Source: Candidatus Latescibacterota bacterium (lineage in GTDB: Bacteria > Latescibacterota > UBA2968). From it: 64,000 nucleotides of DNA. The DNA lies in NCBI GenBank assembly GCA_965204745.1, contig OZ242010.1, forward strand, positions 5,024,001 to 5,088,000, given 5' to 3'. Below are positions 7,327 to 54,713 of the stretch, one piece after another; within the stretch, counting starts at the first letter, position 1, and every line of letters begins with the position of its first letter. A program made the translations under genes and the position numbers. Below the pieces are notes generated by a model. It was not told where the DNA came from. It saw only the letters and a program-made list of their open reading frames with translations, and searched no databases.

Positions 7327-7330
7327 CCAC

Positions 7331-7542
7331 AAGAGGCGTAAGAGGCAAGACGCAAGAGGCGTAAGAGGCAAGACGCAAGAGGCGTAAGAGGCAAGACGCA
7401 AGAGGCGTAAGAGGCAAGACGCAAGAGGCGTAAGAGGCAAGACGCAAGAGGCGAGAGGCGTAAGAGGCAAAAGGCAAGAGGCAAGAGGCAAAAAGCGTAA
7501 GAGGCAAGACGCAAGAGGCAAAAAGCGTAAGAGGCAAGAGGC
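7331..7542 (+). repeat. Tandem tract (AAGAGGCGTAAGAGGCAAGACGC)n and AAGAGGC heptamers; resumes at 8840-8940 after the IS
   Basis: About 5 near-perfect 23-bp units plus degenerate heptamers. Confidence 0.9.
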
Positions 7543-7561
7543 AAGATACTCTCTTAAAAGG

Positions 7562-8569
7562 TCAAGGGGTTTTCGGGGTGATTCGATAGAATTTTTCGCC
7601 CTCAAAATCTTGGTCATGGCGCAACATGCCCCAGATCGAATGGAGCAACTTTCGCATCACCGCAACGATAGCCTGCAAAGGTTTCTTGCCGCGGGCGATG
7701 AGTTGGTCATAGAAGGCTTTGACATGGCCTTCGTGTCTGATGGCCACCCAGGCAGGCATATAGAGGGCATGGCGGAGGTACTTATTCCCGGTTTTCGAGA
7801 TGCGTCTTTGTGGATTGGCGGTTCCGGATTGTTTGGGTTTGGGATCCAGGCCTGCATGTGCGACCCACTGGGGCGGTTGCATCTCCTCTGGCAAAAGGGT
7901 CAACTCGGCCAAGAGCCGCAAGGCACTCGTTTGCGCGATGCCAGGCGTCGAGCAGAGGCGTTGGTAGGCACGCTTGAGGGGCTCATCGTGCAAAACGAGA
8001 TCGAGGGCTTGGCTTTCCAAGTATGCAATCCGGCGTTTGAAGTGTCGAATATTCACCTGAATATCGCGTGCGATGAGACGTGTGCTGCGGATGTGGTAGC
8101 TCTGCGCGTGGTTGCGGCTCTGTTCGCGGATGATCTCCTGCTTGAGTTGGTCAATGCGTCTGGTGAGGGCTTGCAGTTGAAGCCGTTGCTCGCTCGGCGC
8201 TTGCCAAGGCACAAAAGGCATGCGCTCGGCATAGTCGAGGATCAACAACGCATCCTTCGCATCCGTCTTCGCCCGTTGCATGCAGGCTTGGGCGTACTTG
8301 CTCATCGCTTTGGGATTGACGACCATGACCTTTGTGTGGCGATGCCGATGCAAGGCCAAGGCCACCCCCAAACTGTAAAGCCCGGTCGCTTCGAGGCACA
8401 CAGAGACCATGTGCCCGCCCTTCGTGAGCCACTTCAGCAACCGCTTATGCGCTTGGGGATCATTGGCAAAGGTCGCTTGCATGACAGCTTGTCCGGGTCT
8501 GGACAGGGCAACGGACAACGTGCGGGCACTGACATCAATGCCGGCAAAAGCGGGGTGAGATTTCGACAT
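7562..8569 (-). CDS. IS110 transposase / bridge recombinase
   Basis: GIDVS, EATG, KTDAKDA (DEDD RuvC-like), PGIA, QSG catalytic Ser, ISKTGN; start MSKSHP after AGGAGG. Confidence 0.96.
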   Translation of the reverse strand: MSKSHPAFAGIDVSARTLSVALSRPGQAVMQATFANDPQAHKRLLKWLTKGGHMVSVCLEATGLYSLGVALALHRHRHTKVMVVNPKAMSKYAQACMQRAKTDAKDALLILDYAERMPFVPWQAPSEQRLQLQALTRRIDQLKQEIIREQSRNHAQSYHIRSTRLIARDIQVNIRHFKRRIAYLESQALDLVLHDEPLKRAYQRLCSTPGIAQTSALRLLAELTLLPEEMQPPQWVAHAGLDPKPKQSGTANPQRRISKTGNKYLRHALYMPAWVAIRHEGHVKAFYDQLIARGKKPLQAIVAVMRKLLHSIWGMLRHDQDFEGEKFYRITPKTP

Positions 8570-8609
8570 GGGGGCCTCCTGTGATGAGGGGGTTGTAAGG
8601 GATCTGGTG

Positions 8610-8822
8610 CGCGCTCGGGGTCGCGTCCCGACCATTGACGCCAAGTCTACCGGTCTTGTATATGCAGCCTCAAGGGGCTTAGATACTCTTCGGCATAGAC
8701 CCGGCGGTCGGGGGGCCTATCTTACCTACAAGGTCATCGCCTTCAAGAGGGGCCGGCCTTCCCCGAGCCGGGCATCAAGATGGCTTATCTCGATACGAGG
8801 GCGCAACTCCTAATTAACCCTT
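8610..8822 (-). ncRNA. Putative bridge RNA (target-binding loop then donor-binding loop)
   Basis: Guides at 8745-8752 and 8720-8727 match the flanks; guides at 8681-8689 and 8654-8661 match the element ends; stems 8613-8620/8761-8768 and 8627-8633/8706-8712. Ends approximate. Confidence 0.8.
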
Positions 8823-8941
8823 ACTTCCAAGATACAAGAGGGGAGAGGCAAAAAGCGTAAGAGGCAAGACGCAAGAGGTGAGAGGCAAGACGCAAGACGC
8901 AAGACGCAAGAGACAAGACGCAAGAGACAAGAGGGGAGAGG

Positions 8942-9110
8942 GGTGGTCTTCTCCCGTCTTGCCTCTCACCTCTCACCTTTTTCGGTGGTCTTCTCCCGTC
9001 TTGCGTCTCACCTCTCACCTTCTTTAGGTGGTCTTCTCCCGTCTCGCCTCTCACCTCTCACCTTTTTCGGTGGCCTTCTCCCGTCTTGCCTCTCCCTTCT
9101 CACCTTTTTT
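8942..9110 (+). repeat. Four tandem ~42-bp units GGTGGTCTTCTCCCGTCTTGCCTCTCACCTCTCACCTTTTTC
   Basis: Units start at about 8942, 8984, 9027, 9069; related tract at 34190-34322. Confidence 0.85.
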
Positions 9111-9123
9111 AAGGAGATTGAAT

Positions 9124-52788: not shown

Positions 52789-52863
52789 TTTTTTCCAAAC
52801 GCGGTCTATGACGAAGCGACATCGTCAGGCAAGAGGTAAGAGGTAAGATACTCTCTTAAAAGG

Positions 52864-53871
52864 TCAAGGGGTTTTCGGGGTGATTCGATAGAATTTTTCG
52901 CCCTCAAAATCTTGGTCATGGCGCAACATGCCCCAGATCGAATGGAGCAACTTTCGCATCACCGCAACGATAGCCTGCAAAGGTTTCTTGCCGCGGGCGA
53001 TGAGTTGGTCATAGAAGGCTTTGACATGGCCTTCGTGTCTGATGGCCACCCAGGCAGGCATATAGAGGGCATGGCGGAGGTACTTATTCCCGGTTTTCGA
53101 GATGCGTCTTTGTGGATTGGCGGTTCCGGATTGTTTGGGTTTGGGATCCAGGCCTGCATGTGCGACCCACTGGGGCGGTTGCATCTCCTCTGGCAAAAGG
53201 GTCAACTCGGCCAAGAGCCGCAAGGCACTCGTTTGCGCGATGCCAGGCGTCGAGCAGAGGCGTTGGTAGGCACGCTTGAGGGGCTCATCGTGCAAAACGA
53301 GATCGAGGGCTTGGCTTTCCAAGTATGCAATCCGGCGTTTGAAGTGTCGAATATTCACCTGAATATCGCGTGCGATGAGACGTGTGCTGCGGATGTGGTA
53401 GCTCTGCGCGTGGTTGCGGCTCTGTTCGCGGATGATCTCCTGCTTGAGTTGGTCAATGCGTCTGGTGAGGGCTTGCAGTTGAAGCCGTTGCTCGCTCGGC
53501 GCTTGCCAAGGCACAAAAGGCATGCGCTCGGCATAGTCGAGGATCAACAACGCATCCTTCGCATCCGTCTTCGCCCGTTGCATGCAGGCTTGGGCGTACT
53601 TGCTCATCGCTTTGGGATTGACGACCATGACCTTTGTGTGGCGATGCCGATGCAAGGCCAAGGCCACCCCCAAACTGTAAAGCCCGGTCGCTTCGAGGCA
53701 CACAGAGACCATGTGCCCGCCCTTCGTGAGCCACTTCAGCAACCGCTTATGCGCTTGGGGATCATTGGCAAAGGTCGCTTGCATGACAGCTTGTCCGGGT
53801 CTGGACAGGGCAACGGACAACGTGCGGGCACTGACATCAATGCCGGCAAAAGCGGGGTGAGATTTCGACAT
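52864..53871 (-). CDS. IS110 transposase / bridge recombinase
   Basis: Translation identical to 7562..8569. Confidence 0.96.
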   Translation of the reverse strand: MSKSHPAFAGIDVSARTLSVALSRPGQAVMQATFANDPQAHKRLLKWLTKGGHMVSVCLEATGLYSLGVALALHRHRHTKVMVVNPKAMSKYAQACMQRAKTDAKDALLILDYAERMPFVPWQAPSEQRLQLQALTRRIDQLKQEIIREQSRNHAQSYHIRSTRLIARDIQVNIRHFKRRIAYLESQALDLVLHDEPLKRAYQRLCSTPGIAQTSALRLLAELTLLPEEMQPPQWVAHAGLDPKPKQSGTANPQRRISKTGNKYLRHALYMPAWVAIRHEGHVKAFYDQLIARGKKPLQAIVAVMRKLLHSIWGMLRHDQDFEGEKFYRITPKTP

Positions 53872-53911
53872 GGGGGCCTCCTGTGATGAGGGGGTTGTAA
53901 GGGATCTGGTG

Positions 53912-54124
53912 CGCGCTCGGGGTCGCGTCCCGACCATTGACGCCAAGTCTACCGGTCTTGTATATGCAGCCTCAAGGGGCTTAGATACTCTTCGGCATAG
54001 ACCCGGCGGTCGGGGGGCCTATCTTACCTACAAGGTCATCGCCTTCAAGAGGGGCCGGCCTTCCCCGAGCCGGGCATCAAGATGGCTTATCTCGATACGA
54101 GGGCGCAACTCCTAATTAACCCTT
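53912..54124 (-). ncRNA. Putative bridge RNA, copy 2
   Basis: Same sequence as 8610-8822. Confidence 0.8.
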
Positions 54125-54263
54125 ACTTCCAAGATACAAGAGGTAAGAGGTAAGAGGCAAGAGGCAAGAGGCAAGAGGCAAGAGGCAAGAGGTAAGACAT
54201 CGTCAGACTACCTGTCCACATTGCACGCACCAAGTTACGCAAAAAATCGGATATTCCAAGGGC

Positions 54264-54713
54264 TAGGTCGTGTTGACATTTCATTTTTTGTTGTTACGCA
54301 CAGAGTAGCAACTGTGTTGCTTCTTGCTCATTTAAGGCGTTTGGTCCTTTGATGGCTTAGGTTGCTCTGATGGCGTTTTGCGAGGGGACCTATCCCCCGG
54401 CCCCGTTATTCGCTTCGCTCATTGTAGGCTACGCCTGTGCCTACGAGGAAAGGGGAGTAAAGCTCCTTTGATGGCTTAGGTTGATCTGATGGCGTTGACC
54501 GAGGGCATAAAGCGATTAAATATCCCTCATCAATCCCCTCGCAAAACCGCTCACAGTTCCCCCTTCCTCGCAGGAAGGGGGTTAGGGGGTAGGTCCCGAT
54601 AAGGCGCGACCGTTTCAGTTTCTCAAACCGAGAGCATATTCTGCGATAGGGCTTGATTTTCTCGATAAACCGCTCAAGCCAGTTGCTTTGCTCGTAAATG
54701 TCAACACAACCTA
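54264..54713. mobile_element. Non-autonomous MITE with 18-bp terminal IRs containing a nested R1 element
   Basis: TAGGTCGTGTTGACATTT (54264-54281) and AAATGTCAACACAACCTA (54696-54713), 17/18 complementary including the terminal TA. Confidence 0.7.

Follow-up and report, generated by a model that had tools for sequence, protein, structure and literature searches.

Introduction

What leads an insertion sequence (IS) to settle, copy after copy, inside one kind of short tandem repeat? The question is raised by a stretch of 64,000 nt from Candidatus Latescibacterota bacterium (OZ242010.1), referred to below as the window, and by the host genome to which it belongs, a single contig of 5.48 Mb (G000). 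The window holds two copies of an element that abut arrays of pyrimidine-rich heptamers. The element is very probably an autonomous insertion sequence of the IS110 family, similar to IS621 and ISCro4, that recombines under the guidance of a bridge RNA, the address of insertion being carried by the RNA and not by the protein. This reading draws on the anatomy of the sequence, protein homology, covariation in the RNA and the complementarity of guides to sites and to element ends, read directly in 52 copies and several species. It amounts to a known bridge-RNA mechanism with a new class of address, pyrimidine tandem heptamers, and not to a new mechanism. An earlier description of the window (the preliminary description) had put forward a new orthologue with a new address; that part stands, and, with the mechanism already known, the novelty is lower than was judged there.

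The main point of comparison is IS621 of Escherichia coli (Durrant et al. 2024, PMC11208160; Hiraizumi et al. 2024, PMC11208158).

Results and discussion

Element anatomy and recombinase

On the minus strand, copy 1 begins TGTATCTTGG (from 8836 downwards) and finishes AAGAGAGTATCT (at 7544), with ..CCCCT-CT flanking it on one side and TGCCTCTT.. on the other. These ends are not inverted repeats of each other, and long terminal inverted repeats are absent. The left non-coding end measures 267 nt (8570-8836) and the right end 18 nt (7544-7561), and a long left end with a short right end is what sets the IS110 group apart from the IS1111 group (PMC11208160, Extended Data figure legend). Membership of the IS1111 group, in which the guide RNA lies in a long right end and is accompanied by a short left end and long subterminal inverted repeats, is ruled out by the right end of 18 nt.

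The sole protein of the element matches PF01548 of Pfam (E=1.2e-24, residues 9-154, 87.3 bits where the cut-off is 29) and carries a C-terminal Tnp domain with the conserved serine (PF02371, E=4.8e-20, residues 203-287). Among all solved structures, phmmer matched it to two sequences only, both over their full length, namely the transposases of ISCro4 (9t56_A, E=7.6e-40 over residues 7-326, the best match) and IS621 (8wt6_A, E=5.8e-36). D12, E60, D103, D106 and S248-G249 stand opposite D11, E60, D102, D105 and S241-G242 of IS621 (the numbering of the PDB chain is offset by 2), and mutation of the five IS621 residues D11, E60, D102, D105 and S241 abolishes recombination (Hiraizumi et al. 2024, PMC11208158). 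Protein homology and end structure thus confirm the assignment of the element to the IS110 family (IS110 group, the bridge-RNA elements) as a relative of ISCro4 and IS621. The preliminary description had called it a bridge-recombinase orthologue with the IS621 order of target loop, donor loop and CT core, a proposal borne out by the two domains, the catalytic residues and the covariation described below. In the main family a further in-frame ATG lies upstream (window 8570-8644, minus strand) and would give a 357-aa product; the other subfamilies and the orthologues use the start homologous to that of the 335-aa form.

Predicted bridge RNA

The stretch 8600-8800 folds with a minimum free energy (MFE) of -82.3 kcal/mol (z=-3.09) into a 5' hairpin and a closing stem that encloses two stem-loops, both of which carry a large internal loop and end in a small hairpin; CCCGACC (8706-8712) pairs with GGTCGGG (8627-8633) on the minus strand. 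For a test of covariation the homologous stretch was aligned from 22 distinct sequences, which include six variants of the host genome, two sister genomes (76-84% protein identity) and seven more distant genomes of the phylum (52-64%), and also take in a Gemmatimonadota contig (48%) and a metagenome contig (46%). The RNAalifold consensus of these 22 orthologues has the same two-loop design, with compensatory changes in 15 of its 28 pairs. Paired cells make up 94.1% of the consensus structure versus 86.6% in shuffles (0 of 500 as high), and the covariation score of 0.275 compares with 0.130 for the shuffles, none of which (0 of 500) scores as high, and with 0.03-0.09 after a shift of the 3' partners by 1-3 columns; as the structure came from the same alignment on which it was scored, it is somewhat favoured in these comparisons. 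Both sides have changed in 11 of the 13 pairs of helix 3, the donor-loop stem. The closing stem was dropped by the aligner, and the homologous helix is the longest enclosing one in 14 of the 22 single-sequence folds, in covarying versions that include GCUCGGG/CYCGAGC, CUCUGG/CCAGAG, CCCGGG/CCCGGG and CUCUGGC/GCCGGAG.

All four guide segments fall in unpaired columns, that is, in the internal loops of the consensus structure; burial of the guides in stems, which the preliminary description had named as contrary to its proposal, is not what the consensus shows. The columns of the left target guide are the most variable of the alignment (0.42 bit), and those of the donor guides hold 1.6 bit each, in agreement with the published contrast between a poorly conserved first loop and a far better conserved second loop in bridge RNAs (PMC11208160, Extended Data figure legend).

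Guides, element ends and a putative junction promoter

The guides of loop 1, CCCCUCUU and AGGUAAGA, spell the target CCCCT-CT-TACCT, and those of loop 2 spell the element's own joined ends, AGAGTAT-CT-TGTAT. In each loop the 5' guide is top-strand sense and the 3' guide antisense, and the target loop precedes the donor loop, as published. Every coordinate and string that the preliminary description gave for guides and stems is present on the minus strand of the window, exact to the base; its reading of loop 2 as the joined ends and of copy 1 as lying in a CCCCT-CT-TGCCT-type site agrees with both strings and flanks, and the site and guide scores that it gave for copy 2 were recovered (Table 1).

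In 51 of the 52 copies the left donor guide is identical to the element's right end, and in every one of the 52 the reverse complement of T-CT-TGTAT forms the right donor guide. TGTAT opens the left end of 51 copies, the remaining one having a 1-nt insertion. GAGTATC stands at both places in nine orthologue loci (listed as L056, L062-L065, L067, L068, L074, L075, L080), the orientation of which was set by this double occurrence itself.

On a joined circle, the -35-like TTGACC of the right end would stand 17-18 nt upstream of the -10-like TATCTT of the left end, a geometry that fits in 52 of 52 copies. The promoter of IS621 is rebuilt across the circle junction from a -35 in the right end and a -10 in the left end (PMC11208160), and the same function is presumed for the two hexamers here. 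A scan of the integrated left end found no sigma-70-like site. The heptamer flanks were considered as a source of a -35 for integrated copies and rejected, only 7 of 52 having a hexamer with at least four of six matches at the right spacing. The 14-nt donor junction has 0 matches in the host chromosome.

Table 1. Position and basis of the features discussed, in window coordinates
Feature	Position	Strand	Basis or remark
IS110-family insertion sequence, copy 1	7544..8836	-	1293 bp, counted TGTAT...AGAGTAT-CT including one CT core
IS copy 2	52846..54138	-	sequence identical to copy 1; site TACCT-CT-TACCT; left guide 6/8, right 8/8
Recombinase (transposase) gene, 335 aa	7562..8569	-	AGGAGG ahead of start
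Predicted bridge RNA (5' hairpin, closing stem, target-binding loop, donor-binding loop)	8613..8795	-	fold and covariation; ends predicted
RNA 5' hairpin	8773..8795	-	single-sequence fold
Closing stem	8761..8768	-	fold; GCTCGGGG, 5' strand GCUCGGGG, with 8613-8620 CCCCGAGC
Target-binding loop: GGCC/GGCC stem, internal loop, small AAGG/CCUU hairpin	8714..8758	-	consensus fold
Donor-binding loop: long covarying stem, internal loop, small hairpin	8628..8711	-	consensus fold
Left target guide CCCCUCUU (DNA CCCCTCTT)	8745..8752	-	top-strand sense: LT5 + CT + 1
Right target guide AGGUAAGA (DNA AGGTAAGA)	8720..8727	-	reverse complement of T-CT-TACCT
Left donor guide AGAGUAUCU (DNA AGAGTATCT)	8681..8689	-	equals last 9 nt of element
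Right donor guide AUACAAGA (DNA ATACAAGA)	8654..8661	-	reverse complement of T-CT-TGTAT (right end's last T, core, left end's first 5 nt)
TTGACC, -35-like hexamer in right end, overlaps stop codon	7560..7565	-	15-16 nt from element end in 52/52 copies
TATCTT, -10-like hexamer, left-end positions 3-8	8829..8834	-	TATCTT 46, TATGTT 5, disrupted 1, of 52 copies
Left-flank pyrimidine heptamer array, ~14 units, finishing ..CCCCT-CT at element	8837..8934	-	Tandem Repeats Finder (TRF), period 7, 14 copies
Right-flank array, heptamers mixed with nonamers, starting TGCCTCTTGCC	7330..7543	-	TRF period 23 (7+9+7), 9.3 copies
Four 42-nt units of pyrimidine heptamers, orientation opposite to 8837-8934	8942..9111	+	TRF; long imperfect palindrome
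Copy 2 flanking arrays	52827-52848 and 54137-54197		repeat search

Insertion sites of the copies in the host genome

A blastn search of the host genome returned 68 segments, 52 of which span over 1250 of the 1311 bases in the query and are taken as full copies: 37 have at least 99% identity, eight about 96%, two about 95% and five about 89%. CT stands at both junctions in all 52 (..CT/TGTAT and ..AGTAT-CT/, a slash between bases marking the junction here and below). Thirty of the 37 youngest copies, those at 99% identity or above, are identical to copy 1 over the whole length and the reading frame is intact in 51 of the 52, which suggests that the element was recently active. Beyond about 14-20 nt the flanks vary from copy to copy, both in the unique DNA reached and in array length, and so point to separate insertions. 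Conceivably, the copies could be dead remnants that spread along with their flanks through segmental duplication or homologous recombination, in which case the flanks would be uninformative on targeting; repeat flanks could indeed promote homologous exchange, and one copy (602768) is a chimera of two subfamilies. Set against the outer flanks that differ per copy, the intact frames, the identical copies and the different flanks of different guide variants, this explanation is barely credible.

For the pairing test, each copy's own guides were read, its empty site was rebuilt, and the two 8-nt guides were scored with G:U/G:T wobble allowed. Both guides are fully paired to the copy's own site in 43 of the 52 copies. 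Pairing is perfect (8/8 + 8/8) in 23; another 18 have 8/8 on the left and 7/8 plus one U:G wobble on the right, the wobble arising from TGCCT in place of TACCT in 17 and from TACTT in one, and two copies have a single G:T wobble in the left guide. Among the 45 copies that carry it, the left guide CCCCUCUU is identical to the site at 8/8 positions (left half CCCCT-CT) in 41, and the right guide AGGUAAGA, also with 45 carriers, scores 8/8 in 24, 7/8 with a U:G wobble in 18, 6/8 with a wobble in one and 5/8 in two. Altogether 37 of the 45 copies with main-family guides occupy CCCCT-CT-T[A/G]CCT, so that the scatter of other copies over unrelated sites, which the preliminary description had named as evidence against itself, is not what the genome holds. 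The match between guides and sites across the copies is far above chance.

Two copies of different subfamilies, 1121591-1122880 (~96%) and 1122888-1124180 (>99%), lie head to tail with one heptamer (7 nt) between them.

Guide variants and relatives

Guides and sites covary over five guide variants in the host genome and over other genomes, that is, natural guide changes accompany changed insertion sites; guide changes without a change of specificity had been the last of the contrary outcomes listed in the preliminary description. Copy 1297026, with guides UCCCUCUC/AGGUGAGA, sits in TCCCT-CT-CACCT (16/16), and the five ~89% copies, which combine CGCCUCUU or UGCCUCUU with AAGUAAGA, occupy C[G/A]CCT- or TACCT-CT-TACTT, one exception having TACCT. 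The eight ~96% copies have main-family guides and the same target sites. Their protein (320/335 identical to that of the main family) is more diverged than that of copy 1297026 (324/335), but their guides and target are unchanged, so the address appears to follow the RNA and not the divergence of the protein.

Since all variants share the donor loop and the ends, the RNA of one copy could place the circle of another. A left-end fragment at 2972651 carries CCCCUCUU/ACGGGAGA, which spell CCCCT-CT-CCCGT, and this is also the site type of the main-family copies 1927368 and 5150716, which misfit their own right guide. The chimeric copy 602768 (602782-604074) changes from the 89% type to the 96% type after its first ~115 nt, a stretch that holds both target guides; its site, TCCCT-CT-CACCT, fits neither guide, and the case would agree with gene conversion among copies or with insertion guided by the RNA of a different copy. 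For four copies in TACCT-CT-TACCT and two in CCCCT-CT-CCCGT, half-matched insertion, as reported for IS621 (10.64898/2026.08.31.748434), may serve as an alternative to placement in trans.

The truncated copies 921765, 1263480, 1433011 and 2089473 are embedded in another repeat, ..ATTCCCCC-CT/.., and a right-end remnant at 5088575 abuts ../TCCTCGCAGGCACAGG. The first three, which still include the guide region, carry CCCCCCUU (or a form 1-2 bases longer) and CAGGAAGA, i.e. (C/U)AGGAAGAG, which spell CCCCC-CT-TCCT; the site CCCCC-CT-TCCTC belongs to a palindromic repeat of 126 copies that resembles repetitive extragenic palindromic (REP) sequences. These copies appear to be an older, now decayed subfamily with other guides, aimed at the REP-like repeat.

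Retuning is also seen between genomes. The element was found in three of 21 genomes of the genus, the host genome and the sisters G082 and G091. Intact copies of G082 (OY282377.1) carry UCCUCCUU or UCCCCCUU with AGAAAAGA, and several of them sit at ..CCCC-CT/TTTCTCG.., apparently the same kind of REP-like repeat. In G091 (OZ251458.1) the guides are UCGCCUCU/AGGGAGAU and the site is CTCGCCT-CT/CCCGTCT, made of heptamers of that genome's own dialect. Among more distant orthologues compared with their own left flanks, AAGCAUCU of G128 goes with AAGCAT-CT and AAUAGUCU of G120 with AATAGT-CT, and G101 shows one mismatch. A scan of metagenome contigs found two distant loci only (L057, 46%; L058, 42%). 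The element is also present in contigs of four public runs, with other letters at the guide positions 8724, 8726, 8727, 8748 and 8752; the public runs found for it comprised 20 rows from eight studies, mostly labelled sponge metagenome, with no RNA run among the rows listed. Joints in these contigs that skip the element were not trusted as empty sites, their sides being 32 nt or shorter and inside repeats.

Several observations weigh against guidance by a bridge RNA. True mismatches to their own guides occur in nine of the 52 copies, namely the four in TACCT-CT-TACCT and the two in CCCCT-CT-CCCGT mentioned above, 778444, 1307056 and the chimeric 602768. The right guides of orthologues of the G128/G120/G101 type match only 2-3 positions past the core, and three G041 copies have no clean fit to their guide. 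The single-sequence MFE fold pairs UCUUG of the left target guide with UAAGA of the right one, although pairing between the core-overlapping halves of the two target guides is unavoidable given how the guides are built. Rfam 15, searched over 7400-9000 at E<=10, gave nothing relevant on the left end and may hold no bridge-RNA family, and a search of the contigs of the four public runs for a joint of right end to left end saw no circle junction. The subfamilies differ in protein besides guides, so that the protein may have a share in site choice, and both the bridge RNA and its activity are predicted from sequence.

The last two points would also suit a different explanation, in which the left-end structure, lying as it does directly upstream of the ribosome-binding site, is a mere cis-regulatory leader of the transposase mRNA, the protein picks the site, and the guide matches are a by-product of captured target-like sequence. 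Such a leader would hardly be expected to hold, in target and donor loops alike, a sense 5' guide and an antisense 3' guide in register with the CT core. Moreover, single-base guide changes track single-base site changes, the more diverged protein with the same guides keeps its site, the same pattern recurs in orthologues down to 52-64% protein identity, and the homologous RNA of IS621 has been shown to guide. We regard the leader explanation as very improbable and retain guidance by the RNA.

Proposed mechanism

Under RNA guidance, the element would be cut out as a circle, the joined ends of which would bring the right-end -35 beside the left-end -10. Transcription from there through the left end of the circle would yield a ~185-200-nt RNA containing two internal loops, of which the donor loop would pair with the joined ends AGAGTAT-CT-TGTAT and the target loop with CCCCT-CT-T(A/G)CCT, the 12-mer formed where CCCCTCT meets TACCTCT or TGCCTCT in the host arrays. 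A recombinase tetramer would then swap strands at the CT core, with S248 (by homology) forming a phosphoserine, and insertion would be into non-coding DNA where two heptamer units meet, with a single orientation. Co-resident subfamilies, one to three guide bases apart, take correspondingly different heptamer variants. Transcription, RNA-protein binding, circle formation and present-day activity are steps that we infer.

Heptamer arrays and their occupancy

Heptamer direct repeats of intergenic DNA are familiar from cyanobacteria as short tandemly repeated repetitive (STRR) sequences. TRF finds 606 period-7 arrays in the host genome, which, merged with those of periods 14, 21 and 28, make 810 arrays and 43.5 kb. 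They fall into two classes, an ACTGACA/ACTGACC type and a pyrimidine-rich CCTCTTG/CCTCTTA/CCTCTCA/CCCCTCT/CGTCTTG type, and it is the latter that supplies the CCCCTCT/T[A/G]CCTCT junction used by the element. The perfect site CCCCTCTTACCT is occupied 20 times and free five times (80% occupied), versus 17 occupied and 65 free (21%) for the wobble site CCCCTCTTGCCT (Fisher p=1.2e-7), so that perfect sites are nearly exhausted.

Across the 21 genomes of the genus, the pattern (CCTCTNN)3CCTCT occurs 528 times in the host genome, 219 times in G091, once each in G085 and G087, and not at all in 17. The ACTGAYM heptamer class occurs in seven of the 21, including genomes that lack the element, and not, with this pattern, in G091. 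The heptamer arrays are thus a variable trait of the host, and the guides of the element follow the locally common pyrimidine repeat.

A 7-nt tandem unit cannot keep a reading frame, and the arrays are on this ground very unlikely to be coding. Gene context was read for the two window copies with Pfam on their neighbours: copy 1 has a GDP-mannose 4,6-dehydratase gene on one side and a zinc-dehydrogenase gene on the other, and copy 2 is found upstream of a gene for a sulfotransferase. The view of the arrays as intergenic safe harbours, taken in the preliminary description, holds for both window copies in that they are intergenic; a wider safe-harbour role would go beyond these two loci. Stop-to-stop frames over the rebuilt sites (at least 100 codons at 39 of 52) were discarded as uninformative, as the heptamers hold no stop codons.

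The TGTATCT heptamer and a possible footprint

The string CTTGTATCTT, made of the core and the element's first eight bases, occurs 212 times in the host genome, 166 of them outside full copies, and the sequence to its left resembles the element's left target half, with C at -5 in 147 of the 166. In the REP-like repeat, 15 of the 126 copies have a clean 7-nt TGTATCT, i.e. the five bases that open the element followed by the CT core, at the insertion point (CCCCC-CT/TGTATCT/TCCTCG). These 15 show at least four upstream contexts, and 12 of them share one repeat subfamily. By pattern search of the 21 genomes, this form has 14 matches in the host genome and 0 in the 20 others, and the undisturbed form CCCCC-CT/TCCTCG has 103 in the host genome, 10 in G082, four in G090 and eight in G091. 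The other occurrences of CTTGTATCTT, mostly (83) ahead of a GC-rich hairpin module, do not make a clean case, the heptamer there being degenerate: TGTATCT in 67 of 137 copies and otherwise CGTATCT, TGCATCT or TGTCTCT.

TGTATCT at the insertion point may be an excision footprint. One route to it could be that the left end recombines at its second CT, where TGTAT-CT-TGG resembles the donor GTAT-CT-TG; another could be slippage between the GTATCTT repeats at the two junctions. Excision of IS110 elements has been described as scarless or precise (PMC11208160), and a literature search found no paper on IS110 excision footprints.

Such footprints bear on the direction of the link between element and arrays, since excision leaving TGTAT+CT might seed or extend heptamer units and make the arrays partly the element's own product. 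In keeping with this, the clean heptamer is confined to the host genome and recurs in several contexts, CTTGTATCTT is frequent outside full copies, pyrimidine arrays are abundant only in the two genomes whose element targets them, and the variants TGTCTCT, TGCATCT and CGTATCT grade towards array units. Recombination, however, can leave TGTATCT only and never TACCTCT, TGCCTCT or CCCCTCT, and just two candidate footprints lie at heptamer-type right halves. The unrelated, never-targeted ACTGAYM class, with its presence in element-free genomes, speaks for array formation as a host property. The footprint itself could stem from replication slippage between the 7-nt GTATCTT direct repeats and not from the recombinase, and the 12 cases in one repeat subfamily may descend from one event. 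A reversed link is on balance distinctly unlikely, and arrays that precede the element and are read by its RNA remain the preferred account.

More speculatively, and in our view unlikely, IS110 excision would not always be scarless: a 7-nt TGTATCT would be left at the CT core, through the second CT at left-end positions 6-7 or GTATCTT slippage, and new heptamers would be written into host repeats. The shared donor loop would let any guide variant steer any copy in trans, and element and arrays might co-evolve and reinforce each other, the element contributing to the making and diversity of the landing pads and its guide variants partitioning them. A footprint of this kind, if real, would qualify the view of scar-free excision.

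Comparison with known systems

The element resembles IS621 in its two domains and five catalytic residues, in its CT core, long left and short right ends and succession of target loop and donor loop (PMC11208160), in 5' guides (8-9 nt) that pair with the bottom strand and 3' guides that pair with the top strand, in a natural target that tolerates one rG:dT wobble, in a -35-like and a -10-like hexamer divided between right and left ends, and in the choice of an abundant intergenic repeat as target. The AU 3' of its right target guide could pair with donor A6-T7 in the manner of the A81/U82 handshake guide of IS621 (PMC11208158). It is unlike IS621 in that its protein is only distantly related (E=5.8e-36) and that a blastn search at a distant setting found no nucleotide match in 20,395 E. 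coli records. The target is the junction of two units in a tandem heptamer array, whereas that of IS621 lies within a REP palindrome; and the element, whose mechanism is predicted from sequence, resides in an uncultured latescibacterotal host in 52 copies with several co-resident guide variants. ISCro4 (PDB 9t56), the best match of solved structure, is likened to it by PDB molecule name and protein alignment.

ISPpu9 and ISPpu10 of Pseudomonas putida, IS110 elements too, exist in multiple copies that keep to a single type of intergenic repeat (PMC12288879, 10.64898/2026.03.19.712850). They target REP-type palindromes (PMC12288879), whereas the main target here is a simple direct tandem repeat, and a preprint proposes that they read DNA structure besides sequence (10.64898/2026.03.19.712850). 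As to the repeats, the TAACTGA intergenic tandem repeats of Beggiatoaceae and cyanobacteria (PMC4679880) have a counterpart in the host's ACTGACA/ACTGACC/ACTGATA class, a rotation or near-variant that is likewise intergenic; the class targeted here differs from them in being pyrimidine-rich (CCTCTTG/CCTCTTA/CCCCTCT). A literature search found no paper linking pyrimidine heptamer repeats to an insertion sequence, or an IS110 element aimed at tandem heptamers, though the catalogue of reconstructed IS110 targets in PMC11208160 may list such cases. A term search in the available text of 10.1101/2025.10.25.684509 and 10.64898/2026.08.14.744561 likewise met with no IS110 at tandem heptamers and no excision footprint.

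The host genome offers a natural experiment, in which one closed genome with 52 copies and at least five guide variants keeps a near-complete record of the site taken per variant. The record spans wobble tolerance, saturation of perfect sites (80% versus 21%) and half-matched insertions, and the sister genomes show retuning to a different repeat. It forms a ready-made table of specificity and mismatch tolerance for an orthologue akin to ISCro4 and IS621, both engineered systems, and indicates that tandem, microsatellite-like repeats can act as RNA-addressed landing pads.

Modular repeats and array surroundings

The REP-like repeat has the form ..CCCCC-CT/TCCTCG[C/T]AGGCACAGG.. (e.g. 415937-415957 and 1079905-1079925), and an undisturbed copy lies in the window at ~54420-54470 (minus strand). 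The GC-rich hairpin module, TGTATCT-T[T/C]GGGCGAGCACGGGGGCATCGCCC, is part of a modular intergenic repeat system of 137 copies (e.g. 536074, 580050, 2015613) and has a counterpart in G091, GGACAGGC..GCCTGTCC. It is often followed by CTTTGAACTGGCTATCGCCAGTTGTACCCC, 9-mer arrays (CTTTTGTGC), GGCTAAAATCCC and then heptamers. The idea that CT-TGTATCTT plus the hairpin module is a miniature derivative with both element ends found no support, AGAGTATCT occurring only 13 times outside full copies.

Weak miRNA-like Rfam matches at 8872-8984 are meaningless and have their source in the heptamer palindrome. An origin of the arrays as inserted units with target-site duplications was considered and set aside, direct repeats of at least 8 nt standing at 59 of 810 arrays versus 15 of 810 shifted controls, a weak excess only. 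The ACTGACA/ACTGACC/ACTGATA class has 574 pattern matches in the host genome and appears in the left flanks of copies 1942497, 4382965 and 4781702; ACTGACA-type arrays are often joined to pyrimidine arrays via CTTGAGGAACAGCGCGGTGGCC. Beside copy 1, pyrimidine heptamers of opposed orientation meet at ~8935-8945 (..GAAGACCACC/CCTCTCC..), a layout found also beside copies 331834, 778456, 1122888 and 2600959. On the minus strand, TGACGATGTC flanks the array of copy 2 on either side (54190-54215 and 52815-52830); this 10-mer occurs 37 times in the genome.

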